This document shows, piece by piece, positions 20,740 to 52,400 of a DNA stretch of 64,000 bases. Source of the stretch: Schmidtea polychroa (taxonomy: Eukaryota); the NCBI GenBank assembly GCA_044892525.1, contig CM097885.1, positions 20,338,001-20,402,000 of the forward strand, read 5' to 3'. How positions within the stretch are numbered: the stretch's first letter is position 1; each line of letters starts with the position of its first letter. The position numbers were made by a program, and so were the translations under genes. The notes under the pieces were generated by a model, which made no database searches, had not been told where the DNA came from, and saw only the letters and a list, made by a program, of their open reading frames with translations.

Positions 20740-20774
20740 ACAATAAAACTTTGTGATACCCAGTGCAAATCCCA

Positions 20775-20816
20775 ATAGTAGACTACTTTCGAGATTTTGG
20801 CTCTCATCAGTAATAT
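20775..20816 (-). ncRNA. Hammerhead motif, duplicate copy
   Basis: Identical to 696-737. Confidence 0.55.
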
Positions 20817-31500: not shown

Positions 31501-32706
31501 ATTTATTTTTTGATATTTGAAATGAACAAAACGTGAATACGTAAAAATATCTTTTATTAATTAAACATATTATAACATTTAAACAAAGTTGTATTTTTCA
31601 TTAATAACCACGCATAAATAAAAATCATTAGATTTTTTTAATTTAATTTTGAAAATTGTTTAAAATCACGATTTCTGCGGTAATTTCCATTGCTGCAATT
31701 TTTAAGAAAACCAGAGGAGTTCGAAAATACAATATCAAGGAAAATTACAAAGAAAAAAACGGTCCGTTGTTTTACAGAGAAACAAAAATAATAGTTATAT
31801 TTTTATTTCTGGCCTGTTTAAACTAGCAAATCATTCGAATGTGTCCCATATTGAATATACCCAATTTCCGTAGTAGAAATATTATTTACTAAGGATTATT
31901 GTAAATATTGGTTCACATCCTTGGTAAATTTTCTTTTTTTTATTCGCACAACTTTGCAATGTTGATTCAACAGGTTAATTATATTTACAAGTGTTTGGTG
32001 TTCGCTATTATTTTTTCAGAAAGTAGAGTATTGGTTTCTTTCACTGAAATCTGCGAAAAGACTTTTTAAAAAAGATTTTTTTGTTTTAATTTGCTGTCTA
32101 TTTCCTTTCAGTGCTTCTAAGAATAGTTTTCTATGAAATTCATTGTAAACAATTGAAATAATTTTTGTAAATTAATAATAAAATCTTTGCTGATGTACAA
32201 CAATAAAATAATTCACTTTTATTATGTCCCACTGTCATCTTTAGAAAACACTTTTAAAAGTTTAAATTATCTAAATTAAATAAACAAAAAGTTAATTCTG
32301 TAAATTTGACATAATTAAATTTTCTAGTGCTTTAAAATGAAATGAAGTAAGATTTATTTATCAAAGAAAGGTAAATACCTTTTTCTGTTATTGGCCTTTA
32401 GGCAACGAATATATAAAGTGAGCAAAAAACTTATGGAAACATGAGAAAGAAATTTGTTTTTTTAACCATTTTGTTCTACTAATGCTTAGAATTCTCTCCT
32501 TTTATATAATATTTTGTTGCTATTGCTATTTTGTAAACATACTAAATTTTGAATAAACAAAGTTTGGAAACATTTTACATTTCTATGATTTTGTTTAAAT
32601 GCATCAATTATACACTTGTTTCTGGAATTTTCTACGACTGTATGAAAACAGAATTTATCATTTCATTTCCATTCTAAACGAAGTTTCTTTACAACTCAGC
32701 AGACTC

Positions 32707-33219
32707 ATGCCTACAAGAAAGTATTTATCAGGCAATATTCGAGAACGAATGGTGGACCTTTATATTAATAGTGGAAGGAAGAAAATTGACATTGCGAAGA
32801 CGTTTTCAGTGCAGCGCAGTACTGTGACTAAAGTGATCAAAAATACCAAAAAATACCGAAACCCATTTATAACCGCCAAAGCCATCCAAAACAACTTGAG
32901 CCTCCACCACATGAGCAAGCAAATTATTCAAAACAGACTGATGGGCGTTGGACTTCATGTACGCAACCGTGCTAAAATGGTATATGTATATGCTAAGAAT
33001 CGCCGGGAAAGAATCGCCTTTGCCAAAAAGCACATTAGCTGGACTACACAGCAATGGTCTTCTGTACTCTGGTCTGATGAATCAAAGTTCAAAATTTTTG
33101 GTTCCGATGATCGATGTAAGGTTTGGCGCCCAAATCGAGAAAAGTACAATCCTCTCTACCAAAAACCAATTGTCAATCACGGACATGTTTGTAAGATTAT
33201 AGATCAAATTCATGTATAA
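32707..33219 (+). pseudogene. Truncated Tc1/mariner transposase, duplicate copy
   Basis: Same ORF at +20079. Confidence 0.9.
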
Positions 33220-35325
33220 GGTACACTATATTTCGGTACAGCATTTATCTAAACTAAAATATAAAATATTTGATTAAAGCCGTGCCGAAATATCGTGTAT
33301 CTTATTTATTTTCTTGATCTATAACATTACAAACATTAATATGAAAATAAATAAAACATCAAAAAAGGAAACAGAGTTAAAGGTGACCAAAGAATTAATG
33401 ATTCGTGTTTCCTACTACGAATTTATTCTAAATATATTTGAATTCATTAATCTTTACCCACTTGATAAGGTAAGAATACGTCTCTCAAGCTCAGGAATCA
33501 ACTAGCATGATTAGTGGCTTTAACCCAATGTGTTCAGAGGGATTTTCTCCGAAATTATAAGGCACAGATCAAAAGTATTACCATCATTAATTAGAACTTA
33601 TAATAACAAACATTTTGAGATTTAAAACTAATTTTTATCATATTCTGATCGTTACATAGAGTTACAATTTTAAAAATAGGCCTTTTTCAAAGTGAAATAA
33701 AACATTGAAGTTGAAGGAAAAAATTCATAAAACATATTTGTTTTGATAGAACATCTATCGATCATATATGGGTAGAAAAACTTCATAGAAAATCTAAGTA
33801 GAACCTGAGTATTTTTCAAAATAGTAAAACCTACTTTTGAAAAATTTAGAATTTTTTTATAAATTTGAATAATTTAGAAATCTCTGAACCAAATTTGCAA
33901 ACGTCCTCGGAATTTCATTTTAACAATGCTGAAAAAATACAACATTTAGCCTTTAGAACTTTTCTAGAAAATTTTAGAATGTTCTAGAAGAAAATATAAA
34001 TAGCCATCAATAAATCATTTTATAAATGTGAACAATGTGATGTTGGCTTGTGCATTACAACTTGTTTCAAATATTATCACACAAATCTTACTTACTAATA
34101 TTATATCAATCTTATTCAACCATAATATTAAACTATTTTAGAATTTTTTCAAAAAAAAAGAATTTTTCAAATTTTTTAAATGTTTAAAATAATTATCATG
34201 AAGTAATTTTCCAAAAAAATTTACATTGGTTCAAAACAATTCGGGACTCAAAGATTTAATGATTTATTTAATTAATTTGTAATGTATTAATAACATTGAT
34301 TAGAGATCTTCCATCGGTGTAAAAACATATTATATTCGTACTTATCCTTTCATTTATCACCTGACTATAAATAGAATTTCAGTCATTAATCAACCGGGAA
34401 TGTCACCAAACCTCCAGTAAACCATAACCAGTCTTTCATTTATATGTTTCTACGATAACAGTTCCATCAATAAATATATTTTTTTATATTTCCTATAAGA
34501 TTAATTTTTTTTAAAAGAATATCATAAAAATACGTTAATATGTATTCTAGAAACATTTTGAATTTAGATTATTTGTTAACTTTTTAAGGAGAAATCTCAA
34601 AACGGAATGGATGAGTATCATTTCAAAATACTAAACGATCATCAAGCTGTGATTTCTGTCAATGGATCTAGCAATCAAGAAACTTCAGTTGATAAAGAAA
34701 TGGTTAACAATATGCCGAAGACAGTCCGATTGAGATTCGCTTCATTATGTTTAGAGAAGATACAAAACTGTCAACTCACGGTTGATAATAAATTTATTCC
34801 GTTAAATTCAAGCAATAAATCAGGAAAATCTTGAAATTCCGGAATTAATGGGAATAATAATATTCATTTGACTCTCATTTCATTTTTATGAATTTTTTAT
34901 CAAAACTGACTTTTTCAGTGTATTTACTAAGATTTTATTATATTATTAGTAATATTATTAGTAATTAAAAAAATATATAATAGTTTATTATATTATTAAT
35001 AAATGTAAACATTTACTTTTTTATTTCTATTAATTCACATAATTATTTTCATTATTCTATCTAATGAGAGGGGTAAAAATCGTTTTAATTTTAAATTGTA
35101 TAATTAAATCCAGTTTCCTTTAGGCCAGTGGTGCCCAAACTTTTTATCAAGTGGGCAACTATTTAAATGAAAAAGTCTTTGCGGGCACATTTTTGAAAAA
35201 TTAGTTAATAGAAAAATGATCTTATAACAATCTTTTTATTAGGAAACATGCATTTGTATTAAAAATTTAAAATAATAAAAATAATAATGTGAAACAAAAC
35301 AAACAAATTTATTTATAACATCATT

Positions 35326-36237
35326 TTAATGCGGCTTTTGAATTTGAGTCTGGCTAACAAGTTGATCAATATCAGGATTGATTTTTGAATTTGATAATAG
35401 AATGAGGTTTTCCAAGTGAGCATCAGTGAGTGAACATCTGAATTTGCTTTTTATGTAGTTCATTGAAGAAAATGTCTTCTCACAAATGTAAGTTGATCCA
35501 AATTTGACCACAAACCGGAGTGCCATGTTGTTAAGTTCAGGATAGTCATTTTTTGGAACAAGCTTCCAGAATGCTTTTAAGTCGGGTGAAATAGGTGATT
35601 CACAAAGCTCTTGAAACTTTCTCTTTAATCCTGTGTGGTTTTGAATGTCAGTAATTTCCATCTGTATTTTTGGAGAATACTTGCTGATTTCACTTTCTGA
35701 TATAGAGAATGGATTAATGAACAATAAAATGTTATCCTTCTCTGCCTCAAAGTCAGAAAATCGAGAAGAAAATGAATGAGACAAATTCATAATGGCAAGT
35801 TTGTATTTTTCATAGTCCAAGTTGACAGTGATTGAACTTTCAAGTTGAAATTTCTGAAGCGTGGGGAAAAGATCCAGATTTCCTTGAGAAAGACTGTTAT
35901 AAAACAGTTTTAATTTTGCCTTAAATGCATTGATTTGATTGAATAGTGTTGGGAACAAACTATTTTCACCTTGCAATCCTGTGTTCAAGATGTTCAGGTA
36001 ATTTATGACATCAACAAGAAAAGCCAATTCACTCAACCAGGAATTGTTTTTCAAAAGATCACACTCGGTAGGCAACTCTTTTTTTTCTTCCAAAAATTGC
36101 AGTACTTGGGTCCTTAACTGGAAAAATCTTGACAGCATTTTTCCCTTTGACAACCAGCGAACAGAGCAATGGAGCAAAGGTTCACCACAATCATCGGTTT
36201 CCTCTTCAAACAGGGATCGGAACTCTCTTCTATTTAG
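35326..36237 (-). pseudogene. hAT transposase, 3' half
   Basis: VRWLSKGKMLSRF, LAFLVD, FGSTYICEKTFS. The tracked ORF start lies in the viral TIR and is artefactual. Confidence 0.93.
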
Positions 36238-36570
36238 AGTAGTGAGGAATCTATGCACCCCAGCACCCCCACCCTAAAAAAAAACAGCGCTATTGACCCA
36301 TATTTTCCACATTTATATGCTTTTTTACCCCATATTCTTCACTTTTTTTAACTTTTAAACTTTGTCCCCTATTGCCATTAACCCTTAATTTCTTCCCTTA
36401 AAAGTAAAAAAGTTCGGAATAGATGTATTCATAGATTAGTAATTCCGAGAAAAGGTAACGGGGTGCATAGATTCCTCACTACTTGGTCTTAAGGATTTAA
36501 TGTTATAAGGATTTAATGTTATAAGAATATCAGATTACCTAATTCATAATGATCTAGGTCGCCTGATCAC
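36238..36570 (+). repeat. Polinton left TIR (333 bp)
   Basis: Reverse complement of 51090-51423; three differences noticed. Confidence 0.97.
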
Positions 36571-36616
36571 CTTAAGGTTTTGAAAGTTTTAAAAATAAAA
36601 AATTTTATGAAATAGT

Positions 36617-36678
36617 AAAACTGCTCTGAGAGGACAGTGGTTTTTTTTTTTTTTTTTCACTGTCCTCTCAACAGTTTT
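36617..36678. other. Hairpin with a poly-T loop next to the left TIR
   Basis: tgagaggacagtg (36627-39) / cactgtcctctca (36658-70) perfect 13-bp stem, extended by aaaactg/cagtttt. Confidence 0.8.
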
Positions 36679-37150
36679 TTTTTGATCCGGATCATTTTTT
36701 TTTATTCAACCTCTTTCGTTTATCAAATCTCTTCCAATATACAAGCTGGCCAGACTCATACATCAGAATCAATCCGATAATAGCAGCACGCCTTATTATT
36801 CGCTTCTCGCTCGAATACGATTTCATCGGCGTTTTAAGTGTGCTGCTCGAAAGTACAAATGAATTCGAAAGCGAATCCGAAAGAGGTCCGAAAACAACTG
36901 AGAAATAAATGTGCACATTACCGGAATCGATCCGGGGGTGTTCGAAAGACAGGTGGCGATAATTACCGGTTCGCCACCATCACACGTTTCAATATTTTTT
37001 TTTTCATATTTATGTTTAAAAAATAATTAATTAATAAAAAAATAAAATAAAATAAAATAAATAAAATAAAATATACAAGTACTTTATAAATATAAGATAC
37101 CCACACTATTTTCAATATTATTTTCAAATTTTTAATATTATTTTATGTTG

Positions 37151-37234
37151 AAAAAAAACTAACCTCAGATGTGATTTGAACCACTATCCATTTGAACCAC
37201 TGTGCCAGTCTATTCCCACTGCGCCATCAAGGTT
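37151..37234 (-). ncRNA. Candidate Pol III tRNA-like small RNA, unit 1
   Basis: A box TGGCGCAGTGG (37226-37216), two GGTTCAAAT B-box cores, T8 terminator, 5'/3' complementary ends (AACCTTGAT…ATCTGAGGTT). Confidence 0.55.
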
Positions 37235-37480
37235 TGAATTTTTGTCATTTTTTCGACTATAAATAATCGATTCAAGTTCTTTAACTCTTTCCTGTAATTG
37301 TTTCATTTTCTTCAATCTTATATCAGCAACATCTACAGCCTTCATATAAAAATGTCGATACTTTTCATTATCTACCATCAACTCTTTGATGTATTCTAAT
37401 GGTTCTTCTTCTCTTCTTTTCATTCTCTTATGTTTAACTTCATTCAATTCATTTCTCATTCTTTTTTTTAACTCATCCAT
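37184..37480 (-). CDS. Small charged coiled-coil viral protein, function unknown
   Basis: 98-aa ORF with tataaaaATG context like the other viral genes. Confidence 0.6.
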   Translation of the reverse strand: MDELKKRMRNELNEVKHKRMKRREEEPLEYIKELMVDNEKYRHFYMKAVDVADIRLKKMKQLQERVKELESIIYSRKNDKNSNLDGAVGIDWHSGSNG

Positions 37481-37637
37481 TTTTATAAATATTTTTTTTA
37501 TTGGATATATTAATTTTTGGTAGTTAAAACGTTTTTGATCTTAAATTTCCAAGAGTTGCCGTTGACCAATCTCCTTAAAAATTTGTACAAGTACTAAATC
37601 GAGTATGCTGATCAATATTTCGTTAAAAAAAAATTTG

Positions 37638-37718
37638 AAAAAAAATGACCGAAATGGGATTTGAACCCATTGGTATTGGCAATGCAGTCGAGTGCTATTA
37701 CCACTAAGCTATACTCAA
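37638..37718 (-). ncRNA. Candidate Pol III small RNA derived from tRNA-Cys(GCA), unit 2; not a canonical tRNA
   Basis: GAGTATAGCTTAGTGGTAATAGCACTCGACTGCA resembles the tRNA-Cys 5' half; perfect T-arm ATGGG-TTCAAAT-CCCAT; T8 terminator. Acceptor and anticodon stems do not pair. Confidence 0.65.
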
Positions 37719-37870
37719 TATAAAATAAGTTGTTAATGTGTGACTATTTATTGATGAAATTAATAATTAATTATTCATTTTCTCGACAACTACCACTCAG
37801 ATCCATCTGAAAATTTAAATATATACTAAAATCAGTACGCTGAATCAGATTCCGTTGAAAAAAAATATCG

Positions 37871-37943
37871 AAAAAAATTGACCAAAATCGAAAATTGAAC
37901 CCGGTGATAAAATTGAAGCCTATTCCCACTCCGCTATAATGGC
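37871..37943 (-). ncRNA. Candidate Pol III tRNA-like small RNA, unit 3
   Basis: A box TAGCGGAGTGG (37936-37926), imperfect B box GGTTCAATTTT, T7 terminator; flank is homologous to that of unit 2. Confidence 0.5.
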
Positions 37944-37999
37944 TTACAAAATATATTTAATTAATCCTATTTTGTGTGTGTAAATTTTAATATATAAAA

Positions 38000-39292
38000 A
38001 TGAATAACATAAATCTTAAAATTCAAGAAAAAAATAAATTAAATCTTGATTATAATAAAGAATTTACTCATGAAATTAAAAAAAATGATATTTTAAAAAT
38101 CTCTCCAACTTCAGGATCTATTGCAAACTTAAATCGTAGGGGTGATATAGTTTTTCAATCTCTTCAAACATCAAACCCAATAGATATTTGTAATGCCAAA
38201 TTATATTACAAAGTAGAATTAGAAATTGAAGCAAACAAAGATATAACCCTAGAAAATAATTTCTTTCCAAATTTATTCTCCAACATGAGATTAAAACTAG
38301 GATCATCAGAAATTGAAACTGTTTTGCATCCGGGAGTATATTCTACAATGTTAAATTTTATTTTGACTGGTTGTGATTATAAAAACGAATATGGTGAATT
38401 AACAGGTTGGATTCCTGATGTTAATAAAGGGGATTTAGATAAAGATGGTTTAGATGTAAACCATGGTTACCATAAAAGAGCTGAACTTTATAAATCTAAA
38501 AAATTTGAAGGTTATTTTGAATTAAAACACTTGTTTGGATTCCTTCAAAACTATAATCGTATACTTCATAATGTTTTTATAGAATTCATCTGTAATAGAG
38601 TAGAAGGTGATAAAAGATTGTTCTATGGAGCTGTAGATACAAAAGCTAAATTAAAATTATCAACACTTGAATTACATATACCTGAATGGACATTAAACCC
38701 ACATTCTGTGATTAAACTCCTTGAAAGATTAAATTCCAACAAGTCTATAAATGTAAATTATTTAAATAGAATCTGTAGTGAATTTAGTATGACAGAGGGT
38801 TCAACATATTCTATAAAGGTAGCAAATTTAGCATACCGACCAAGATATATCTTGATTGGATTCAAAGAAACAGATTCATCTTTCCAAAAAAATAACAATC
38901 TATTTATTCAAAAGATTGGAGATGATAATTTAAAAACAATACAAATTCAATTAAATAGTTCTTATTATCCAATAAATAGAATGGAATTTAATATTGAAAA
39001 TAATGAAAACATATTCCCATATCTAAATTATATTGAAACATGTTATGATTTCAAAGTTGAACCGCAATTAAGTTTAGAAGATTTCAAAAATTTATATTCT
39101 ATATTTTGTATAAATGTATCAGACCAAGATGATCGATTAGCCATAAATAATGTTGATGTTACACTTCATGTAACAAAGGATTCTAATTTTAAAGCTAAAG
39201 TATATACATTAATATTAGAAGAAAAGAAAATAGAAATGAAATTATATGGTGGAAAGATTTCAATAATCGAAAATGTTAGGGGAGATTCTTAA
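38000..39292 (+). CDS. Major capsid protein (double jelly-roll, hexon-like)
   Basis: 430 aa; LENNFFPNLFSNMRLKLG..EIE, PRYILIGF, IQLNSSYYP and IFCINVS resemble Polinton MCP motifs. Confidence 0.88.
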   Translation: MNNINLKIQEKNKLNLDYNKEFTHEIKKNDILKISPTSGSIANLNRRGDIVFQSLQTSNPIDICNAKLYYKVELEIEANKDITLENNFFPNLFSNMRLKLGSSEIETVLHPGVYSTMLNFILTGCDYKNEYGELTGWIPDVNKGDLDKDGLDVNHGYHKRAELYKSKKFEGYFELKHLFGFLQNYNRILHNVFIEFICNRVEGDKRLFYGAVDTKAKLKLSTLELHIPEWTLNPHSVIKLLERLNSNKSINVNYLNRICSEFSMTEGSTYSIKVANLAYRPRYILIGFKETDSSFQKNNNLFIQKIGDDNLKTIQIQLNSSYYPINRMEFNIENNENIFPYLNYIETCYDFKVEPQLSLEDFKNLYSIFCINVSDQDDRLAINNVDVTLHVTKDSNFKAKVYTLILEEKKIEMKLYGGKISIIENVRGDS

Positions 39293-39321
39293 TATAATCC
39301 CTGATATTTTAACATTTTAAA

Positions 39322-40706
39322 ATGTCTCTAAATAAATATTGGAGATGTGAAAGTTGTAATTGTCAAGTTACAAGACATCATAAAACAAGTCATTTAAAAA
39401 TAAAAAACATACAGGAGGCGATCTACAATCTTCAAAAACAACATCTTCAATATTAAAACCTTTTACTACAGAAAAATATCCAGGTGAAAGACATTTATTT
39501 AAACACAACTACACCGGACCAGGAACAAGATTAGATATTAGATTAGATGAAAATAATAATCCCAAACAAGGAGAAGAACCAATAAATAGAATTGATCAAG
39601 CAGCTTTAAAACATGACATTGCATACAATTCAACAAATCTTAGAGATAGACATGTTGCAGATGTGAATTTAATACATGATTTAAATAGTATCCAAAATCC
39701 ATCAACCCAAGAAAAGATTCAAAGAGCTCTAGTTAAATTAGCAATGAAAGGTAAGATTTTCATAGGCTTAGGACACAGTCCGATCACCATGGGTGCAAGA
39801 CTTCCTAGGAAAGCAAAAGATGTTGCTTATAAAAAGATTATCGAACAAGCAGAGATTGAAAGATCCCTCGAGAGTACAGCCAGGACTAGTTTATTAACCC
39901 CAACAGAATCACAAATAAAATATGCCAACGAATTACACCATGAATTTAGAAAAAATAAAAAATATTTAAAAGTTCAAGTACATGAAAAAGATCAAATATG
40001 GTCTGCTGATTTAGTCTTTATGCCCAAATCATCAGATCCTGAAAAATATAAAATAATTTTAACTGTAATAGATTTATATACAAGATTTGCTTTTGCAAGA
40101 TGTTTAGAAAATAAAACAGGATATTCTATTACAGAAGCATTTGAAAATATATTTGAAGAAAATCAAAGAATCCCAAAATATTTATGGTGTGATAAAGGAA
40201 CAGAATTTTATAACAAAGTTTTTACAAAGTTTTTAAATGAAAATGATATTAAATTATATTCAACAGAAAACGAAGGAAAAGCAGTCGTAGTTGAAAGATT
40301 AAATAGAACATTAAAAAATAAAATGTGGAAATATTTTACTGCTATTGGAAAACAAAAATGGAACAATGAATTGTTACAAAAGATTGTAAATGAATATAAT
40401 AATGATGTACATAGTTCTATAAAATTAACACCTTTAAATGCTTCCATGAAGCCTTAAACCATTAAAGTGGTAAATATTGAAAATAATGTTATTGAAAAAC
40501 CAAAGTTTAAAATTGGTGACCGAGTAAGAATATTTAAATATAAAAATAAATTTGAAAAAGGATTCACAGCAAAATGGACAAATGAAATTTTTATTATAAA
40601 TAAAATAAATTATACAACTCCAATAACATATAGCATCTTTGATTTAAATAATGAAAAAATATTAGGTAGATTTTATAATAATGAACTACAGAAAACAGAT
40701 TTTTAA
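39322..40706 (+). pseudogene. Zn-finger / phospholipase A2 / retroviral-type integrase fusion, disrupted
   Basis: ATG 39322 MSLNKYWRCESC…HLK; frameshift ~39400; then NYTGPG…DQAALKHDIAY in frame with WSADL, WCDKGTEF, VERLNRTLK; in-frame TAA at 40455-57; continues to KFKIGDRVRI. Confidence 0.88.
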
Positions 40707-40717
40707 GTCGACAAGCC

Positions 40718-41509
40718 CTAAAACAAACTTTTCCATATTTCAGCTTCTTCTCTATCCAAATAAATATAATTATATTTTTCTTTCCAATGATTATCAACAA
40801 ACATATCAAACATATTCTTATCAGGTTCAACATTTGAAAATAAATCATTATAAATCATATTCTTATCACGGCGATCTAATTTAAAAAATATAAAACAATT
40901 GGAATTATTTCTTATTGAATTTTTATCTAAAGCATAATATGTTTGAGATATATAAATAACATTACAATTATTATGTCGACCTCGTGTAAAGTAACTCTTT
41001 TGAATCTCTTGATTTTTCATATTAACAACATCATCAAATATAACTAGATTCTTTTTATCTTTAGGAAGTAAATCACAATGTAAAACATCTTCAGGTTTAT
41101 TAGAGAATAAAACTTGAATTGCCTCCTGCCCTTCTTCACAAATATAATCATTTTTATTACTAATATCTGATTCTAAAATCTTTTCCTTATACCAATCAAC
41201 CATATCACAAGGTTGAAAAACTTCTTCAGGACACCTATGTTGATTTTTAAAAATATCAATTATTGCTTTTTTAGTTAATTTATTTTCAAATCCACATTTC
41301 AAAAGTTGTAATTCTGGTTGATTTATGGTTGTAGAATAAAAGATTAAATTATTATAATCTAAAAAATCATCTTCAAGTAACATTCTCAAAACAAGTACAT
41401 TCTTTCCACATCCAGAAGAACCAACAATTAATAATCTAAAATTATCAGGAAATACTTTATTATTGAATTTACTCTTATGTCTATTTAAAATTGGTTTCCA
41501 AGTATCCAT
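40718..41509 (-). CDS. A32/FtsK-like genome packaging ATPase
   Basis: Walker A GSSGCGKN, Walker B VIFDD, RGRH motif, ISQ. Confidence 0.95.
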   Translation of the reverse strand: MDTWKPILNRHKSKFNNKVFPDNFRLLIVGSSGCGKNVLVLRMLLEDDFLDYNNLIFYSTTINQPELQLLKCGFENKLTKKAIIDIFKNQHRCPEEVFQPCDMVDWYKEKILESDISNKNDYICEEGQEAIQVLFSNKPEDVLHCDLLPKDKKNLVIFDDVVNMKNQEIQKSYFTRGRHNNCNVIYISQTYYALDKNSIRNNSNCFIFFKLDRRDKNMIYNDLFSNVEPDKNMFDMFVDNHWKEKYNYIYLDREEAEIWKSLF

Positions 41510-41525
41510 TTTTATTTATTATAAA

Positions 41526-42104
41526 ATGACAACTGAAGAATCTTTGCAAGAATTAATAAATTCAAATAAAAATAAATCAGTAGTAATTGATGGTAAAAAA
41601 TATTTTATTGGAAAACATGTAAAAGAACAAGTTAGAGCGAAGCTCCACGAAGCTAAAGAAGGTGGCATTCTTCCATTAGCTGCTTTAATACCTGCAATCA
41701 TTGCTGGTTTATCAGGTGCTGCTGGAATAGCTGGAGGAATTGCAACTACAGTTCAAAAAGCTAAAGAATCTCAAAAGACAGACCTAGAAAAAGAAAAACT
41801 ACAAACTGAAATCGATTCAATGAAGAAGGTAGGGCAAGCTAAAGGGGGAGTGTCCGTTGGAAAGGGTCTCTATCTTAATCCATATGAGGGGAGTCGGCAA
41901 AAGTCTCAGGGCAAAGGTCTCTATCTTGATCCTTATAAAGGTAGAGGTTTAAATGATTTTTTAAAAAATCAAATTTCTACATCTGAATCTTTATCTTCAA
42001 AAGATAAAGAAGATTTAAAAAAAATATGTAAATCTTTAAAGAATGGATGCCTTTGTAAAACTAAAAATGGTAAAGGATTATACTTGAAGCCCTTCGAACT
42101 ATGA
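41526..42104 (+). CDS. Adenovirus pX-like membrane-active core protein
   Basis: GGILPLAALIPAIIAGLSGAAGIAGG plus three GKGLYL repeats; the first ATG is at 41526. Confidence 0.75.
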   Translation: MTTEESLQELINSNKNKSVVIDGKKYFIGKHVKEQVRAKLHEAKEGGILPLAALIPAIIAGLSGAAGIAGGIATTVQKAKESQKTDLEKEKLQTEIDSMKKVGQAKGGVSVGKGLYLNPYEGSRQKSQGKGLYLDPYKGRGLNDFLKNQISTSESLSSKDKEDLKKICKSLKNGCLCKTKNGKGLYLKPFEL

Positions 42105-42126
42105 TACCATTTTTGATACCATTAAA

Positions 42127-43008
42127 ATGGTATATGAAGAAAGATTAGCACTTTTAAAAAAATTACAATCAGAACAAGATAAATATAATAAAAAAGATAC
42201 AACTCAACATGCTGAATCTATAATATTAAATGAGGTAATAACACAACAACAGGGGCCAACAATTAAAGCTATAAAAGAGTTGGAAGATTTCAATGAGCAA
42301 GCAAAATTTAAAGAGTTAGAAGATAAAAAACAAAAAATAAAAGAACTAGAGTGGCAGGATAAAGAAAAAGAATCCAGTGAAAACCATCCTGAAAGAAATC
42401 AAAGAAAACGCAGAAGAATTTCTAATGTGGAAGAAGAAGAAATGTTTTTAAAAACAAAACCTCTTAAAGTTGATCCTAAAATTAGAGATGATTTACCTCC
42501 TTCAATTAGACCCACATTTAATACTAATACTGAAGGATATCAAATAATAACAATTAATAAACAAAACTTTACTTTATATTCAAATTCAGAAAATAAATCA
42601 CGTATTCATTCACAAAATGTTTATAATAATGAATATTTAGACTTTGAATTTACAGATGATTTTTATAGATTACTTTGTGGATATTCTTCAGAAGATGTTG
42701 AAGAAATTAAAAAATATTTAAATTTAATAAGATTAATAAGAGCTAGTTCTAAAGCAAAATATATTCAAGATTTAAAGAATTATTTAAATAAAAATGAAAA
42801 GGGTTATGTTGTTACAGAGGGAGAGGGATTAATTAGTGAAGGTGGTAAACCAAATCCCATCAATCTTTTTATTGAATTAAGAAAACTATTAGCTGCAAGG
42901 AAAGCAGGACATAATAATTTAGATTCTGATATTTTAAAGATTTCTAAAGATTTGTTAAAACAAGGAATAATTTCAAAAGATAAATTTAATAAGTATACGA
43001 AGTTATAA
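42127..43008 (+). CDS. Conserved Polinton/adintovirus protein, putative virion core
   Basis: GEGL site and C-terminal LLAARKAGHNN…LLKQGII motif; basic NLS-like RKRRR. Confidence 0.7.
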   Translation: MVYEERLALLKKLQSEQDKYNKKDTTQHAESIILNEVITQQQGPTIKAIKELEDFNEQAKFKELEDKKQKIKELEWQDKEKESSENHPERNQRKRRRISNVEEEEMFLKTKPLKVDPKIRDDLPPSIRPTFNTNTEGYQIITINKQNFTLYSNSENKSRIHSQNVYNNEYLDFEFTDDFYRLLCGYSSEDVEEIKKYLNLIRLIRASSKAKYIQDLKNYLNKNEKGYVVTEGEGLISEGGKPNPINLFIELRKLLAARKAGHNNLDSDILKISKDLLKQGIISKDKFNKYTKL

Positions 43009-43030
43009 ATACGAAGTTTTAAAATACAAA

Positions 43031-43495
43031 ATGACTCCTTCAATATTAGATTTTTTAAAAACATTTGGAATAAATGCAAAAACAAATTTTGATTTAAAAG
43101 ATTATGCAAATTATTTAAATTTAAAAATTAAAATATTAATGAATGATGAATTATCAAGTCTGGAGAGTCCCCTGAATATAATAATCAATTATCAAAATTC
43201 AAATGAAAAAGGATCTCATTGGGTTTGTATATATAAGAAATCTATCTACTTTGATTCTTTTGGGATTAAACCTACTAAAGAAGTTGAAGATTATCTCTTG
43301 AGGGGTTCTCCGATTGATTCCCCAAATGGTTATACTTTTAACTCTTTACAAGTTCAACCTTTGAATACTAAAATATGTGGTATTTTAAGTTTATATGTTT
43401 TGTATAGATTGAATAAGGGAGAGGGAAAGGGGCATACGCAGGATTTTGAATCTATAATTCAAGAAATTTATAATGATCTAGAATCTCTACTATAA
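43031..43495 (+). CDS. Adenain-like cysteine maturation protease
   Basis: GSHWV, YFDSFG and Q…CG catalytic motifs. Confidence 0.93.
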   Translation: MTPSILDFLKTFGINAKTNFDLKDYANYLNLKIKILMNDELSSLESPLNIIINYQNSNEKGSHWVCIYKKSIYFDSFGIKPTKEVEDYLLRGSPIDSPNGYTFNSLQVQPLNTKICGILSLYVLYRLNKGEGKGHTQDFESIIQEIYNDLESLL

Positions 43496-43543
43496 GGATT
43501 TTTACTATAAGGATTTTTACTATATGAATTTACTCCTAAAGAA

Positions 43544-44308
43544 ATGGAGCTTCACAACCCTCCGGAAGATAATTTTAAAAAAATGGTAAACATAATGTCA
43601 GATAAATATTCAAGAACTTTATCTATAAATTCAAAAGAATCAGAGTTTACTATAAACTTTCAAGATTCAATTAAATTAGATCAAAATTTAAATTATGAAT
43701 TGGGGCTATTATGGTTTTGTGCTTATAATACTATTTTTAATATAACTAAAGATAATAATAAATTTACTATTCAAACTCGTGATGGGCATAAACCAGAAAT
43801 TATAACAATAGAACCTGGGGCATATGAGATAAAAGATTTAAATGATATACTTTCTAAAAAAACAAATGAAGGTATTAAAATTAAAATGGATATACCAACT
43901 TCAAAATGTGTAATGACTTTGAAGAATATAAAAATTAGTTTTTTAGATAATTGTTTCTTTCACACAGTTTTAGGATTTAAACCTATGGATATAACAATAA
44001 AAGAAGATAAAATAATAACATCAGAACATATTATAAAAATAATAAATACAAACACAATAAATATTCATTGCGATTGTATAACAGGTTCTTATAATAATGG
44101 TAAACAAACAAATGTTTTATATTCCTTTCCCTCAAACACAGTTCCTATGGGATATAAAATAGTTGAAAGAATGAATCCTCCAAATTATTTACCTTTATGT
44201 AGAAAATATATAATGGATATTAATTTTAAAATTCTTAATCAAGAAGGAGAATTGATTGATTTTAATGGAGAAGAGATTTCAATGTATTTACATTTGAAAC
44301 AGGTTTGA
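43544..44308 (+). CDS. Minor capsid protein (penton)
   Basis: IHCDCITGSYNNG…LYSF…GYKIVE…YLP…LIDFNGE resembles Polinton penton motifs; the start could be the second Met. Confidence 0.82.
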   Translation: MELHNPPEDNFKKMVNIMSDKYSRTLSINSKESEFTINFQDSIKLDQNLNYELGLLWFCAYNTIFNITKDNNKFTIQTRDGHKPEIITIEPGAYEIKDLNDILSKKTNEGIKIKMDIPTSKCVMTLKNIKISFLDNCFFHTVLGFKPMDITIKEDKIITSEHIIKIINTNTINIHCDCITGSYNNGKQTNVLYSFPSNTVPMGYKIVERMNPPNYLPLCRKYIMDINFKILNQEGELIDFNGEEISMYLHLKQV

Positions 44309-44332
44309 AGATTCATTTTAAATTATTAATAA

Positions 44333-45343
44333 ATGAGTTCTTATATTCCATGTAATAGAGGTGGTGGAACAATAAAAACATGGTTTAATACAGAAGAAAT
44401 ATTAACTTTAACAGAAAATAAATATATTAATGAAAGAGGTGATTCAATGAAGGGTGATTTAATTTTAAATGGACACAAGATAAAAGAATTATCTTTTCCA
44501 ACTGATGAAGCTGATGCAGTTAATAAGAAATATGTAGATGGTGTTAAAAAATATACTGATTTAACAACAACAAGAATTGAAAGTTCATTAACAACAAAAA
44601 TTGATTCAATGGAATCAAAGCTTAATAATATCGAACAACGATTTAATGATAAATTTGACAAGTTACAAAGTCTGTTAACTGAACAAGTTGTAAAGTTAAA
44701 TACTGCTATATTAAATTCTAAAGATAAACAAGTTATGAATACTAAATTTAATACAATATATAATAAAATAAATGAGATGATTACATCATTTAATAAAAGA
44801 ATTTCAAATTTAGAGTCTCATGGAACACACATTAACACCACACATAGTATTAGAAAAAGAGCTGCTGAATTAGAACAGAATAAAACATTATTACCCCATA
44901 CATATAAACATTTTATAGAACCAAGTTTAATAACAACAAACAGTAAAGAATGGGGTGTTTTTATGGTTGTAAAAATTATTGATCCTTATTTCTTTTTGTT
45001 TGATGATGATAATGAAAGAATGAAATGGTTTGTGAAATGTGATTATAATAGTAAGCTTGAAAAGGGTGATGTTATAATGACTAGTTATGATTTACCACAC
45101 GGAGATTGGTATGTTAATACTCATTCACATGGACTACATAAAGTTAAAAGTAAGAATATTCATTTTTCTAGTTCACTTGTACAATATATAGATTTAATAT
45201 TTTATGAAAAAAAGGTTGATGTTGATGAAGTTCGTAAAGCATTGAGAGAATTGTATAAAGATATCCTCTCAACAAGAGTTTCTTTTGATATCCGAGTATT
45301 GGTACCAGATGGTGCTCAGAAGAATAAAGTCTTATTTTTTTAA
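44333..45343 (+). CDS. Putative fibre/spike protein
   Basis: GDSMKGDLILNGHKI…DAVNKKYVD fibre-type motif, long coiled coil, globular C-terminus. Confidence 0.6.
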   Translation: MSSYIPCNRGGGTIKTWFNTEEILTLTENKYINERGDSMKGDLILNGHKIKELSFPTDEADAVNKKYVDGVKKYTDLTTTRIESSLTTKIDSMESKLNNIEQRFNDKFDKLQSLLTEQVVKLNTAILNSKDKQVMNTKFNTIYNKINEMITSFNKRISNLESHGTHINTTHSIRKRAAELEQNKTLLPHTYKHFIEPSLITTNSKEWGVFMVVKIIDPYFFLFDDDNERMKWFVKCDYNSKLEKGDVIMTSYDLPHGDWYVNTHSHGLHKVKSKNIHFSSSLVQYIDLIFYEKKVDVDEVRKALRELYKDILSTRVSFDIRVLVPDGAQKNKVLFF

Positions 45344-45351
45344 TTATTAAA

Positions 45352-45948
45352 ATGGAAGAAGTAAGAGAAGAAAAAATTTACCCAGAATTGAGATCATCAG
45401 GATATTATTCTTCCAAGGCCTCGGCTCCCACAGAACTTGAAATTATGAGAGTAAAAGAATTTAAATTAGAAACCTTACATTTACAAGATTTATTAAAGCA
45501 TTATAAAAAAATTAAAAATAGATGGAATAAAGGGAATACAGTTTTAAAAGTTATAGGTTATTCTTTAGGATTTGCATCTGCAATATTAACAGTTATTTTA
45601 CCCATAACTTTACCAGTTGTTACTCTTGCACCTGTAATACTTGGAAGTATTTCTGTGGCTGATGGTTTCTTAACTGAAATAGTTTCATTATCTTATACTT
45701 CTAAAAAGAAAAGTTTATATAGAGAAGTTTGTTTATCAATAGAATTAGGAATCTCTAAATTATTTTTATTTCAATTAAAAGCTTTGGAAGATGGAATCCT
45801 GACAGACGAAGAAATAATGAAATCAAATCAAATAATACAAGATATAAAGAATGAGGTTATAAGATTAAAAAGGGAGGGCATGGTGGCTAATGTTATAAGT
45901 AATAAAAAAACATCTCGAGAAAAATGGTTAAAGAATTCTTACTTATAA
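45352..45948 (+). CDS. GasderminX-like membrane protein
   Basis: IYPEL…SAP N-terminus, central hydrophobic hairpin, KALEDGILTDEE motif (family assignment from recall). Confidence 0.6.
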   Translation: MEEVREEKIYPELRSSGYYSSKASAPTELEIMRVKEFKLETLHLQDLLKHYKKIKNRWNKGNTVLKVIGYSLGFASAILTVILPITLPVVTLAPVILGSISVADGFLTEIVSLSYTSKKKSLYREVCLSIELGISKLFLFQLKALEDGILTDEEIMKSNQIIQDIKNEVIRLKREGMVANVISNKKTSREKWLKNSYL

Positions 45949-46042
45949 AATGGGTGTATTTTTAAAAAAGTAGATCAGGTTGCTATAGTTGCTTAAATTA
46001 ATTGTCGACATTTTATTATTAAAAAATTAAATATCGTTGGTT

Positions 46043-46597
46043 TCAGTTATGGTTGAAAGCCAACCTATGAATCATTAATTTATGATCTTTAAATTCTTTA
46101 TCACTTAGACCTTTTATATATTCAGGATCAGTATTAAAATATTTAAGTTCTAAACATATAGGATTAAAAACTTGAGAATATAAAGGTTTCTCGATTTCTC
46201 TCTCGGGATAAATAATTTCAACATTATAAATATCAAGATCAGTAATCTTTGTATCATATAACTTATTCAACTTTTCTAGATTTTTTATTATAGGGATTAA
46301 ATTATTTCCAATAGGTAGAGTTGTCTTTAAATCACTTAGTATGAATCTCTTATCATCATAATTTGATAATGATATTTTTTGAGATTCTATCAAGTGAATA
46401 TCATGGTTTTCACTTTTAAGTTGATGTATTTCATCAATTTTATCTTTATGATTTGGATTCAATGTATCTATATAATCTTGATGAGAAAGATTCTTTGCAA
46501 CCACTCTCTGTATTCCTTTACATCTGTTATCCTTTAAATTAGTAATATTTTTTATAATTTCAAAAATGTTATTTTCTTGATTTTTAGTTTCCATCAT
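46043..46597 (-). CDS. Stand-alone diverged paralogue of the PolB C-terminal ~170 aa
   Basis: Shares KGIQ, YDDKRFILSDLKTTLPIGN and ELKYFNTDPEYI with the adjacent PolB; has its own tataaaATG. Confidence 0.85.
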   Translation of the reverse strand: MMETKNQENNIFEIIKNITNLKDNRCKGIQRVVAKNLSHQDYIDTLNPNHKDKIDEIHQLKSENHDIHLIESQKISLSNYDDKRFILSDLKTTLPIGNNLIPIIKNLEKLNKLYDTKITDLDIYNVEIIYPEREIEKPLYSQVFNPICLELKYFNTDPEYIKGLSDKEFKDHKLMIHRLAFNHN

Positions 46598-46621
46598 TTT
46601 ATAGTGTTAAAATTCTAATTC

Positions 46622-49600
46622 TTAGACCAGTCGTAATTGATTTATAATTATTTCTGCAGTAATGCTTTTTAACATTAATTTATGTGATTTAAAGTCTTCT
46701 GGTGTTAATCCTTGGATATATTCAGGATCAGTATTAAAATATTTAAGTTCTATAGGTTTTATATTTTGAACTTGATTATATAAAGGTTTAGGAATTAATA
46801 TTTCAGGATATTGGATTTCTACTTTAGCAAGTTGAAGGTCTGTAATCTCTAGGTTATAAATTTCATTTATTTTATCAAGATTTTTTATTATAGGGATTAA
46901 ATCATTTCCAATAGGTAATGTTGTCTTCAAGTCAGAAAGTATAAATCTTTTATCATCATAATTTGTTATAGCAATCTTGTTACACTCTTCAAGATATATA
47001 TTATGTTTCTCTGATTTAAGATGATGGGTTTTAGCAATTTTATTTTTATAATTTATATTTAATGAATCTTTATACTCTTGATGTGTGAAGGTTTTTGACA
47101 CTGATTTTTGAATTCCTTTACTTTTATTTTCTTTATAGCTTTTCGGGTTTTCAGGGAATGAAGGATATTCAAATGTATGATCTATTTCAACAGATCCTTC
47201 TCCCTCCCCTATTATAAATTTTATTGTATGCTCTTTCATAATTGGTTTGTCTTTCATTTCAAGAGAATATTGTTTAGGTCTAATAAACACTCCTCCACTT
47301 ATTGGAGTATTTGGTTTTTCATCTTTAAAAGTAAATAATTCTCCAGAGTTGTTTATTAATTTATTTAAGGTTTCGTTTTCACTTATTTCCTTTTTTAAAT
47401 CTTTACTATGACCTTTTAAAAACATACTATCAGTGTCCATAGCATGCATGGATATTCGATCTCCAAAATGGGGTACTAGAACATCATAGTAGGTCTCATA
47501 CATTTGAAGCTTTGAAAGTTCTAAAATTGAAAAACCTATAAAGATTGGTTTATTATAAGTTTTTACAGAGTTTTTAATCTCTATAGCTATAAGGTTACTA
47601 GAGAATATCTCTGCATTTTTAAATGTAGGCTTTCCAATTATTCGATTATATTTATTAAGATCTTTTGTTGTATTGGTTAAGAGCTCTACACGAGTATATT
47701 TATCAATATTCTCCATTGTCTTTCCAAAGACTGCATTGTTTAAAAGTTTATAAATCATATCAAGAAAAGCATTTCCAGCTCTCTTTGCTGCATTTATTTT
47801 TAAGATATTTCCCTCGATGAATTTTTTCATAAAAGGAGCTTGTCGGAATTTAATTATAGAATGAACTTTTTTTAAAACCATTCCATGTGAGAGATAAAAC
47901 TGGAGGAGTCTATAATGACAAAGATAATCAGTTTTATCTGTTTGATCACATAAAAGTTTTATACATGGTGTTCTATTCTGAGCAATCTGCCAATCTGATA
48001 GTTCTTCAGGAGAGATCTTTCTTCTTACAGGAGCAAATGGAAAATATCTAGTTCTGGATTTTATTTCATTGGGATATTCAAGATCACATTCTACAACATA
48101 TCCAAATTGAGAATCTTTTGGTGTTTTTAGAATTTCTTGTATTAATTCCTCAGTGGGTTCTTTCCAGGTGAACTTGCCAATTGGAAGGTATTGAGTCATT
48201 ACTCCCGCATATAAAGCTGTTGCGTCTATATACATTATTTCAGAAGGATTAGAAAGACCTTCCATTATTTCCTTACGATCTTCTGGGTTTGTTATTTCTA
48301 CATATAGAGCATCAGGATCTTTGAAAAATTTAGGATAAAGAGTTGTAAAATTATTAGCATTTATTTCTCTATTCCCTTGTACTGAAGAAATACCTCCTCT
48401 AATATTATGTTTATATACATTAAACATATCAAGCTCAACTAATAATTCAATAGTTTTATTTCTTACTGCTACATCTTCATCAGTCCATATGGTATATAAT
48501 AATATATCCCAAGCTAGAGAGGGAGCGGTTATATAATTATAAGGTTTTAATTCAAAAGCTTTTGAAAATGTCTCGAAGCAATCAGCTAAGATATAAACAT
48601 CCAAGGAAAGATACATGTCAGTATATTCTCCAAGGTTTCTACAGTTGAATAGATTCCACATTTTAACTGCACGGGAATATTCCTGATCAGAAATCCCTGA
48701 TTGTGTTAAAACAGAAAAGAAATCTTCTTGGGGTGGGAGTAATTCATTATATTTTTCAAAGGAGTCTATATAATCATATGGATAGATTCCTTTTGCTAGA
48801 CAGGTATTATATTCCTCTAATGGAATATTGTTTTTTAATAACACATGTTCTTTTGTATATTTAAAATCCTCAGGGTTCATAGTTTTAGCAATCCCATCCA
48901 AAGACATCCCTAAGAAATTTAACGAGTCCAAAAACTTAAAGCATCCATATTGAATGCTTTTATATTTTTCTTTTGTAAGTCCAATAACCTTGAAAGAGTT
49001 TTTAGCATTTGCGGCCAGATGCTTAATGAATAGGTGAATATCATAGCCAAAAAGATTGTGAAATGTAAATGGTATGTGTGTTGGTTTTTTACAATTGAGA
49101 TTACATTTTTTATGGGCTGCTCCTCTGTAATTATTTTCTCTTTTAAAATGATCATGGTCTGCAACCTTTGGCTCCTCATCCTCCTCCTCCTGAATATCAA
49201 ACTCTTGTTTACACATCCAGCAGTGTGTTGCATTTTTATATTCTTCCTCTTGTTCTTCTGAAAAATTCATAGGAAAGTTGGATTTTAATATTATATATAA
49301 TTCATGTTCTAGATTATTTAAAGTTTTAACAAAATGATCTAGAGTCTCTTTGTCAGAAGTTCCTCTAAATGAATATTCTCTAGATTCTACAAGTTCTGGA
49401 TAATTACTTTTAAAAAACATTTTATAAGCAGAGGGTAATTGTTTTGTTAGTTTTACAGTATTAGTTTATGTTCGTCTTAGTTTTACATTTATAGCTTCAA
49501 AATCACAATAAACCACTCCCAATGCTTCTAATAGATTGGAATAGTTTTTAAACCTCATATTAGCATTTTTCTTGTGTGGCATTTTTATTAAAGCAGGTTG

Positions 49601-51016
49601 ATTCTTACAACAGAGTCTCTCATGTTTAATAGCAGCAAGTTTTGAACTTGAATGATATTAACATCTTTTACAACATATGCCTCCACGAATGAGTGTGTTT
49701 CCTTTCATAAAACTTTGAAAATTCTTTATTAAGATATAATGAAGTTTTTTATCTAACATAGTGCCTCCGGACGCAGTGCTTTCTGCTTCTGGTTCTAATG
49801 AAATGCCTTCTTCTGCTTCTCTCCTCGGGTGAACGCTTTGAACCTCTTCACCATATTCTTCTCCATCAAAGTCTTCATCTGGTTTACCTTCTTCTAATAT
49901 TAAAAGATCTACTTCTCTCTTTTCATCTGAGATTTCCATGTTAGAAATGTAAATAGGAATAATGTGTTTATAATTTTTATTTTTTCTAGTTTTTGTAATT
50001 TTGGTTGGAATGAATTGATAAATATTAATTTTAAGATTATTTAATTTTTCAAATGCTGGAACATCTTCAATTTTCATTGGGTGGGAAAAATCTTTTGGAT
50101 AAATTAATTCAGATTCATATTCTTCATATTTTTGAACTCTCTGTGGGTTAGTTGCTTGAGGATGTAAGTGTGCAAGTATTGACCATTGAAAACATTTATT
50201 ATCTTTATTCTGTACATTTATAACATGGTTGGAGGTGAATGGTGTGTGAATAAAAGATTTAGGATTTGGTGGTGCGCCTCTCCAGTATTCAATCTCTATA
50301 TTTTGAAAAGAGTGGAATCTTAAATTAGATTCTCCTAGTTCTTGTTCCACCTGTTCTTGTTTTTCTTCCAATTCTTTAGCTATATCATTAACAAGTTTAT
50401 TTCCTGCTTTTGTAGAAAATAAATATTTATATGAGGTTTCAATTTTTACATCTAGAGGCATTGCGATTGAATCATCTCCTCTCCAGTATTTTGCATTTCC
50501 TGTAAATTTAACTTTTATAACATTAAATCTTGATCTACCAAATTTTTTTATAGCATCATCCATTGATGATATTATTTTTTTTTTATTTTCTCTTATATAT
50601 TGCATGATTGATCTGGGTCCTCGTTTTACTTCTACAATTACATCGGTGTGATTGAAGTTGTCCCAATTAAACTCTAGTTTTTCAGCTTTTTCAGTCATTG
50701 AGTTTGAATCAGAATCTTTTGCTTCAAGACCACAATCTTCTATGTGTCTTAAGTAAAAAGATTTTATCTTCATCTTTTTTCCACATGCTGAACATTCGAA
50801 TATTTCTCTGTTTTTAGGAACTCCAATACAATTTTTAAAATGCTTCTTATAACCTGAAAATAAATATCTATCCTTACATTTAGAACAGAATTTGGAATTA
50901 GTGTCATCTAGTGTGTTAGCTTTTATTAAATGGTCTTTTGATTTTTTATGAGATGTTAAAGCAGTTTTATTTTTAAAATTTTTTTCACAAATTTCACAAT
51001 TGAAAATAGCTTCCAT
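46622..51016 (-). pseudogene. polB: Protein-primed family B DNA polymerase (~1464 codons) with two in-frame TAA stops
   Basis: The two tracked ORFs are one frame with stops at 49660-58 and 49468-66; ExoI VYCDFE lies between them. Also N-terminal Zn fingers, HNH/EndoVII-like DHDH..YRGAAHKKCN, ExoII FHNLFGYD, YIDATALY, KLLNNAVFGKT, DTDS. Confidence 0.95.
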
Positions 51017-51089
51017 TTTTAAAAGAATTTTTTGGTTGGATACGATGTTTTGGTTTTGATATTAATTTTTATTTTTTTTAAATCTAAAA

Positions 51090-51423
51090 GTGATCAGGCG
51101 ACCTAGATCATTATGAATTAGGTAATCTGATATTCTTATAACATTAAATCCTTATAACATTAAATCCTTAAGACCAAGTAGTGAGGAATCTATGCACCCC
51201 GTTACCTTTTCTCGGAATTACTAATCTATAAATACATCTATTCCGAACTTTTTTACTTTTAAGGGAAGAAATTAAGGGTTAATGGCAATAGGGGACAAAG
51301 TTTAAAAGTAAAAAAAAGTGAAGAATATGGGGTAAAAAAGCATATAAATGTGGAAAATATGGGTCAATAGCGCTGTTTTTTTTTTAGGGTGGGGGTGCTG
51401 GGGTGCATAGATTCCTCACTACT
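51090..51423 (-). repeat. Polinton right TIR (334 bp)
   Basis: Reverse complement of 36238-36570. Confidence 0.97.
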
Positions 51424-52400
51424 ATTTAGAGATCGTGCTCTAATCTTGTTAATACAGTGCACAGCTGTGTCAATAACATGCTTGAATTCCATATCCTTTG
51501 AGCAAAGAACTTCTTGATGAATAATGCAATGGTACTTAAAAAGTTTTCTTTTTAGATATTTTTCTAGAAGGGAAACACAACCGTTGTTTTTTCCAACCAT
51601 TGCAGGAGCTCCATCTGTGCAGATACTTTCCAGTTGATTCCAGTTGAGCTTATACTCGTTGATGCTTGAATTTTCCACACAATCTTTCAGTGCTTCAAAG
51701 ATATCGGCTCCAGTTGTTGTAGTTTTCAGTTGACAAAGGCCAAGAAGTTCCTGAACAACATCGAAGTTTTCATTGACACATCTTATATAAACCAGTAATT
51801 GAGCACTGTCAGTTGCATCACAGCTTTCATCAATTGCAATTGAAAAGTATTTTGAAAGTGAAGCAGCAACAATAATTTGTTTTGAGACATCATTGGCCAT
51901 TTCTTCAATTCTCCGAGTAACTGTATTTCTTGAAAGTGCTATGTTTTTGGACAGCAATTTGTTTTTTGGGTCACCTGAGTTTTCAGCAAAAATAGAAATT
52001 GCCTCTTTTACCATTTCACCATCTGAATAACTTTTTTTTAATCTGGCAAGCAGCAGGGAAATTTGAAAGGAAGCTTTTGTCATACCGTGCATTTCTTCTT
52101 GTCTTTTGGTAAAAAATGTTTGCTGAACTGCAAGTTTCGATTTTCTCTTTGAAATAAAGTTCTGTCTGCAGATCCAATTGAGTATTTGATTTTGAATTCT
52201 GAATGCATCTGATTAAAATGACGTTCCACATTGTATTTTTTATAGACTGCAACTGTGTCATTACAAATCAGACAAATTGGCCTTGATGATTGTGAATGTG
52301 TGAACAAAAATTGTTCTTCCCAGTTATTTCTTAACACTTGTTGCGCAGATTTTTCATCTTCACGTTTTCTTTTTTGAGACATCCCTTTGCTGAGAGACAT
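51424..52400 (-). pseudogene. hAT transposase, 5' half (one frameshift ~52160)
   Basis: N-terminal CLIC…HF…H zinc finger, IDESCD, TDGAPAM, HCIIHQE. Removing the virus and one TSD restores KIRARSLN-RREF in frame. Confidence 0.93.

Follow-up and report, generated by a model that had tools for sequence, protein, structure and literature searches.

The element and its insertion site

The stretch of DNA analysed here (64 kb, in the following called the window) contains a host hAT transposase gene that is interrupted by the insertion of a Polinton/Maverick element (Table 1). The element carries a polymerase matching PF03175, an rve integrase, a packaging ATPase and a double-jelly-roll capsid protein, its TIRs end in (AGT)2 and it is flanked by a 6-bp TSD. 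By all the defining features that can be tested it is a Polinton, the protease and the minor capsid protein being putative. The empty site is preserved as well: in 4/4 public runs a contig runs from the left flank directly into the right flank with one ATTTAG.

Table 1. Features of the Polinton element and of the interrupted host gene (positions in the window)
Feature	Position	Strand	Remarks
hAT transposase, downstream half	35326..36231	-	PF05699
Left TSD copy	36232..36237	.	ATTTAG, 6 bp
Polinton/Maverick element, whole	36238..51423	.	15,186 bp
Left TIR	36238..36570	+	333 bp, 3 differences to the right TIR
Outer terminal 24-mer, left end	36238..36261	+	begins with the (AGT)2 end motif, as in passages of PMC8097293
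Loop of the left fold-back unit	36262..36459	+	198 nt
Inner inverted 24-mer, left TIR	36460..36483	-	outward-facing
16-bp tandem repeat, inner TIR	36490..36525	+	2.2 copies
Double-jelly-roll major capsid protein	38000..39292	+	430 aa; PF21738, E 2.9e-26
rve integrase ORF	39744..40457	+	237 aa; PF00665, E 1.1e-12
A32-like packaging ATPase	40718..41509	-	263 aa; PF04665, E 9.7e-09
Probable cysteine protease	43031..43495	+	154 aa; 39% identity to the L012 counterpart
Protein-primed polymerase	46622..49420	-	PF03175, E 9.9e-15
Zinc-finger ORF	49658..51016	-	452 aa; counterpart region is part of a single long polymerase ORF in L003
Right TIR	51090..51423	-	334 bp
Inner 24-mer, right TIR	51177..51200	+	outward-facing
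Outer terminal 24-mer, right end	51400..51423	-	
Right TSD copy	51424..51429	.	ATTTAG, 6 bp
hAT transposase, upstream half	51430..52400	-	PF14291 and PF18658

Some of the genes depart from those of related loci. The integrase ORF (39744-40457) stops earlier than its relative in the locus L033, and the polymerase gene, a single ORF in L003, is split over two ORFs in this copy. The region 46073-46534 is a duplicate of 46673-47134 with 73% identity, and the C-terminal part of the polymerase is found a second time in a 184-aa ORF (46043-46597). The ORF at 43031-43495, which may be an adenain (adenovirus-like protease), gave no Pfam match above the cut-off and a weak match to Peptidase_C39 (E 0.057). 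The ORF at 43544-44308 was considered as a minor capsid protein, and the Pfam scan gave no match above the cut-off for it.

The left non-coding region of the element holds, shortly after the left TIR, a hairpin that has T17 as its loop (36613-36683) and for which the matches to miRNA families were all below threshold. It also holds a tRNA-like unit on the minus strand (37646-37716) scoring 26.7 bits against the Rfam tRNA model, the gathering score being 29. Two further stretches resembling A and B boxes were seen by eye at about 37160-37230 and 37870-37940; ARAGORN reported 0 genes.

Repeats were also seen outside the element. A direct duplication of 15.6 kb with 99.97% identity (1-15648 and 20080-35728) is either a recent segmental duplication or an assembly artefact, and its copy at 1-15648 retains just the 3' part of the hAT gene. 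Tandem arrays are found at 16326-17761 and 19787-20738, with a period of about 82 bp across 1.4 kb and in addition an irregular repeat, which recurs at 1-659 and 62968-63201. A near-perfect, AT-rich palindrome of 301 bp lies outside the Polinton at 58654-58954.

Each TIR contains an inverted copy of its own terminus

The initial annotation had pointed out that the terminal 24-mer of the element recurs in inverted orientation within each TIR, and we indeed find four copies of this sequence, 100% identical, at the positions given in Table 1. Read from the end inward each TIR consists of the 24-mer, the 198-nt loop, the inverted 24-mer, the sequence TGGTCT, the 16-bp tandem repeat and about 45 further bases. 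Reading outward from the inner copy at 36460-36483, the motif ATCTAT occurs three times. The unit formed by the two 24-mers and the loop measures 246 bp at the left end and 247 bp at the right end, where there is one additional base in an A run, and the homology between the TIRs continues for 87 bp on the inner side of this unit.

The arrangement was compared with what chance would give. Within the 64-kb window the first 10 bases of the 24-mer have exact matches at these four places only, and a search of the region 36000-51700 allowing up to 8 mismatches found no further copies. The longest perfect inverted arm within the 333-bp TIR is 24. First-order Markov resampling (1000 sequences) gave arms of no more than 15, and the 189 remaining tiles of 333 bp in the window gave no more than 16. 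When folded as DNA, the 246-nt strand yields -38.1 kcal/mol (z -8.1) with a stem closed by 24 pairs, and 0/200 shuffled sequences folded equally well. The nested terminus is real and goes beyond chance.

The right-hand pair of 24-mers follows from the symmetry of the TIRs and we are thus dealing with one nested repeat that is doubled and not with four independent sites. Moreover, the inner copies point outward, so that they do not provide spare ends for the body of the genome. The initial annotation had counted four potential origin or integrase sites; the four copies stand, but the count overstates their potential, as the inner two could only initiate copying of the 246-bp tip or delimit it. 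In the same way the description of each end as a self-contained 246-bp unit is right with respect to the perfect 24-bp arms and is not supported for an inserted element: with ATTTAG on one side and TGGTCT on the other, the unit has no target duplication of its own, whereas the whole element has ATTTAG on both sides, and the TIR is 87 bp longer than the unit. The suggestion that each end can fold back on itself, on the other hand, gained support from the folding calculation and from the same architecture in a distant relative (L012, see below).

Other copies in public sequencing runs

We placed the contigs of four of the 19 listed public runs (X1, X3, X16 and X17, from 3 studies) on the region 35900-37100 with a likeness cut-off of 85%; the runs X7-X15, with small word shares, were left out. 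X16 and X17 belong to one study, which is possibly the source of the assembly. The depths given here are sums across contigs and not copy numbers.

It had been considered that the nested terminus might be unique to this copy. In X16 and X17, however, the unit occurs in abundance and is continuous with the inner TIR. The summed depth at position 36474 is 36x (X16) and 51x (X17) that of the flanking contig of the hAT gene, itself multi-copy, and record 11 of X16 spans the inner 24-mer and extends into the tandem repeat of the inner TIR. In record 19 of X17, 400 other bases are attached exactly at 36238, which judged from this junction is consistent with a second insertion site. The inner copy is not invariant: a mismatch at 36474 (C>A) makes up about 5% of the summed depth in X16 and 0 in X17, and joints of low depth delete the inner copy, from 36433 to 36491 in X16 and X17 and from 36426 to 36542 in X17.

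At 85% likeness the loop was undetected in X1 and X3, even though these runs contain neighbouring element DNA, namely the tandem repeat as well as the sequence from 36594 onward; a divergence to below 85% could explain this. In X1 the inner TIR is diverged, with 13 differences in about 113 bases, and there is some depth (218) at 36275. With the loop abundant in one pair of runs and not detected in the other, the nested end characterises a subfamily that has been amplified. The segment 36597-37006 has the highest summed depth in 4/4 runs, even where the nested TIR was not detected, and in X1 and X3 different DNA precedes 36594. This segment is probably common to several Polinton-type families with different ends.

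The runs also bear on the proposal that the 246-bp segment exists on its own. The summed depth of the unit relative to that of the inner TIR is 1.23 (X16) and 1.11 (X17) without a step at 36483, so that solo copies of 246 bp are not dominant; rare ones would escape such a comparison. Among the 24 of 260 loose ends listed none lies at 36483, and the 64-kb window holds no solo copy. With regard to inverted versions, the loop has the same orientation at both ends of the copy at 36238-51423 (2/2 ends) and 0/14 listed joints change strand. The latter count is an insensitive test, because a flip across a 24-bp arm would yield contigs too short to be called.

A distant relative with the same end architecture

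A capsid profile search led to 30 metagenome loci, of which one, L012, reaches a recognisable end. This contig starts with 15 bases followed by AGTAGT at position 16, and an inverted copy of the terminus with 21/21 matches is found at 145-165, giving a unit of 150 bp that folds with a z of -10.8. As L012 offers a single end and no second TIR, the assignment of the terminus rests on the motif and on its position at the start of the contig. The locus carries a capsid, an ATPase and a protease-like ORF, and its capsid protein is 31% identical to that of the window element. The two ends have nothing alike beyond the motif and short AT-rich words; their termini are different, and in each of the two elements the inner copy is faithful to the terminus of the same element. 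L012 has a second inner copy at 223-243 which is decayed (17/21), while the first is still perfect. The two inner copies stem from a tandem duplication of this part of the end (118-169 and 195-247 of L012; 53-base, 81% identity).

We surveyed 478 starts resembling the end motif, taken from the window and from 61 loci. A close inverted copy (at most 3 mismatches in 18, within 700 bases) accompanies 7 of them, and all 7 belong to the window element or to L012. Most of the surveyed loci are cut inside the element and hence uninformative on ends. Among the 22 viral polymerase loci only L058 and L056 reach probable ends, the other 20 being truncated within the element, and neither the probable terminus of L058 nor the TIR of L056 has a nested copy, the best candidate having 6/18 mismatches. 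Elements of this kind therefore do not generally need a nested terminus. In a capsid tree of 26 rows (L035-L037, L040 and ORFs below 330 aa were left out) the window element and L012 fall within one group of 13 rows with a support of 83/96; L058 is placed far outside this group and L056 gave no capsid match. The nested terminus is thus present at 2/2 reachable ends inside the capsid group and at 0/2 outside, in what is a small sample.

The exact 24-mer of the window element has 0 matches in the viral contigs and 0 in the metagenome contigs, the L012 terminus has 0 matches in the viral contigs, and the window capsid as query found 0 loci in the viral contigs and 0 in the genome contigs. Scans for gapped end motifs yielded 33 and 42 loci, of which 5/75 have arms of at least 20/21 matches. 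Two of these, L089 and L112, are simple short tandem repeats in phage records with no ATPase match and were rejected, as were the remaining three, which have the same repeat as L112. In L074, L082, L106 and L112 a 7-bp repeat occurs as inverted arrays in intergenic phage DNA. Database records were reached for 3/15 viral loci, all of them classed as linear.

Three loci (L032, L033 and L034, on G001:C6, G002:C8 and G003:C2) present Polinton gene sets within contigs of bacterial bins, and no terminus could be identified in them, even in extended sequence. In G001:C6 the GC content rises from 34% to about 70% after 3-4 kb. Contamination or chimeric assembly is probably the cause of Polinton genes in bacterial bins. 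In the locus L030 two capsid-like ORFs of 496 and 510 aa lie in tandem, accompanied by an ATPase and an ORF resembling a tail fibre.

A possible role of the nested terminus

The nested terminus is shared across a subfamily and recurs in a distant relative, and as a pattern in sequences this hints at a working end structure. We favour the reading that the nested copy makes a fold-back end, which would rebuild a duplex origin or integrase site locally on single-stranded intermediates, and we give it about an even chance of being correct. The end strand would become single-stranded either when it is displaced in protein-primed replication or as the lagging strand at a host fork passing through the integrated copy. 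The terminal 21-24 bases could then pair with the inner complement 130-225 bases away. As the stem ends at the terminal base on either strand, the duplex tip would lie at the boundary between element and host or at a free end; the base of the stem would sit exactly at this boundary, and the double-stranded terminus would be restored locally. About 150-250 single-stranded bases per end would be enough, and the two TIRs, 15 kb apart, would not have to meet. The rebuilt duplex might serve as a site for priming by polymerase and terminal protein, for cutting by the integrase, or for both. With lengths of 24 and 21, the arms presumably correspond roughly to a minimal protein-priming origin or to an integrase site. 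From this architecture we infer a stem that would form in cells and be put to use by one of these enzymes.

The fold-back end is supported by the exact 24/24 match, the stable fold, the abundance in the subfamily and the recurrence in L012. That each inner copy is a copy of its own terminus suggests, together with the perfect copy beside a decayed one in L012, selection or correction through pairing. Several points argue the other way. The comparative basis consists of two elements, L012 being represented by one contig end. The TIRs differ at 3/333 positions and the family looks young, so that the perfect match in the window element needs no selection. The mismatch in the inner copy and the deletion variants, as read from the contigs, speak against a strict constraint, and a folded 3' end may prime its own extension, perhaps with harmful effect. 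Further points are the failure to detect the loop in X1 and X3, the two ends (L058 and L056) that lack a nested copy, and a support of no more than 83/96 for the group uniting the window element with L012.

The main alternative is that the structure is a by-product without function. A defective mini-genome, which would have consisted of 24 bp of one end and about 220 bp of the other, might have been captured by joining to one end of the element, through a template switch or through insertion into the TIR, the former tip being lost, and then copied to the other end by pairing of the TIRs; we consider this account, including its composition and route, somewhat unlikely, and yet it fits a number of observations. 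The unit is built like a two-ended deletion derivative with short repeats particular to each end, and 87 bp of TIR follow on its inner side. The apparent youth of the family, the variants with a mismatch or a deletion and the failure to detect the loop in X1 and X3 agree with this account as well. An outward-facing inner copy is, moreover, unusable for trimming the end and would persist on this account. Against it, two events would be needed, in lineages with 31% capsid identity, and both would have had to give arms of nearly equal length (24 and 21). The perfect copy beside a decayed one in L012 suggests a constraint, or else a continued re-templating of the first copy, and there is no outer target duplication left to indicate an insertion. 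A captured mini-genome may also have been the origin of a structure that became useful later. Should the nested end be neutral, it would still show how defective mini-genomes rebuild TIRs.

Two further explanations received less weight. The initial annotation had thought of the release of a 246-bp mini-Polinton. The unit could be an independently mobile mini-Polinton or MITE, the full element being a composite bracketed by two inverted minis, and priming on the inner copy beside the 5' terminal protein could free a replicon with two ends. In its favour the unit has a perfect (AGT)2 terminus on either side and is short and non-coding with the inverted ends of its parent (24-bp arms, 246 bp), and its depth is slightly higher than that of the inner TIR (1.23 and 1.11). 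We nevertheless hold both the mobility and the release to be improbable, since the unit has no TSD of its own (ATTTAG against TGGTCT), the depth has no step at 36483 and 0 loose ends lie there among 24 of 260, the window holds no solo copy, the exact 24-mer is absent from the viral and metagenome contigs and the homology of the TIRs outruns the unit. Still less credit, in fact very little, is given by us to a hairpin-primed replication of the flip-flop type, in which the folded 3' end would prime synthesis to yield a dimer junction with two embedded origins, and in which a protein-primed start at either of these would, hardly more believably, release monomers with the loop in either orientation. 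It is true that the 3' end of each strand can fold such that its final base is paired, which leaves the remainder of the genome to serve as template. However, the loop is oriented alike at the two ends of this copy, the 0/14 strand-changing joints, insensitive as this test is, lend no support, and no HUH/Rep nicking endonuclease was found among the 16 ORFs scanned against Pfam.

Returning to the fold-back end, its implications reach beyond this copy. There might be a clade of animal Polintons with self-folding ends, whose termini could each be recognised on a brief stretch of single strand with the element still in the chromosome; we regard this generalisation as unlikely. If it were true, an integrated element could leave by one end at a time, through cutting or copying, with no need to loop out 15 kb, and we would have a first concrete structural handle on the exit of integrated Polintons. 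The recurrence with a different sequence leads to a sharp prediction, namely a duplex end formed on about 250 single-stranded bases at the boundary between element and host.

Comparison with known systems

According to passages of PMC8097293, Polinton TIRs have a length of about 50-1500 bp and end in (AGT)2 or (AG)3, and the vertebrate Mavericks treated there resemble the window element in size, TIR length, TSD and (AGT)2 motif. With Polintons/Mavericks (adintoviruses) in general it has in common the size of 15 kb, the AGTAGT...ACTACT ends, pPolB, the rve integrase, the A32 ATPase and the capsid. Unlike the Polintons/Mavericks described, both of its TIRs hold an exact outward-facing copy of their own tip. 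In the titles, abstracts and passages of the literature searched no Polinton TIR is described as holding a nested terminus, and Repbase or Dfam may show it. The main texts of PMC8097293, PMC8502044 and PMC10748475 contain the word 'hairpin' 0 times; in the supplementary parts covering end motifs and coordinates of PMC8097293, with 713 AGTAGT entries, there are 0 occurrences of hairpin or palindrome, and 0 in parts of the supplement of PMC10748475. Integrated Polintons have neither free ends nor an attached terminal protein, and for the start of their protein-primed replication passages of PMC4046053 and PMC4196379 offer models and hypotheses. In the loop-out or panhandle model a single strand is looped out or displaced, its two TIRs pair into a panhandle, and this is cut and used as origin (passages of PMC4046053, PMC4196379 and PMC9863843).

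MITEs and composite transposons likewise have a short unit with perfect inverted ends, present twice and inverted around genes; unlike MITEs, the 246-bp unit has no TSD and the TIR homology goes further, and no solo copy of it was found in the window. In the hairpins of parvoviruses and AAV and in the attC sites of integrons a folded single strand is used as primer or as duplex recombination site, and these systems rely on HUH or tyrosine-recombinase enzymes. Neither type of enzyme was found among the 16 ORFs scanned with Pfam, and no flip-flop was seen in data that are insensitive to it.

As a precedent for a by-product without function, mutants of adenovirus with embedded terminal repeats are known in which extra internal copies of the terminus spread to both ends via pairing of the ITRs. 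Those mutants are laboratory rearrangements of whole ITRs, whereas the window element has a natural, fixed copy of 21-24 bp and integrates. With the ITR panhandle of adenovirus (as presented in passages of PMC9863843) it shares the idea that a displaced strand rebuilds a duplex origin via inverted termini. The adenovirus panhandle, however, joins the two ends of the genome, while each end of the window element would find its complement within about 250 nt of its own sequence, and the strand it pairs with runs on into the genome where that of adenovirus ends in the terminal protein. A precedent for local folding is provided by the telomeres of Streptomyces, in which, as stated in passages of PMC13685816, single-stranded ends of 250-300 nt fold via palindromes and recruit the terminal-protein machinery; homology is not implied. 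These telomeres differ in having several short palindromes and in serving to patch the ends after replication from an internal origin, with no integrase or capsid. By analogy the end structure of the window element might best be described as an adenovirus-like panhandle made local, which would belong to neither the adenovirus nor the Streptomyces type.
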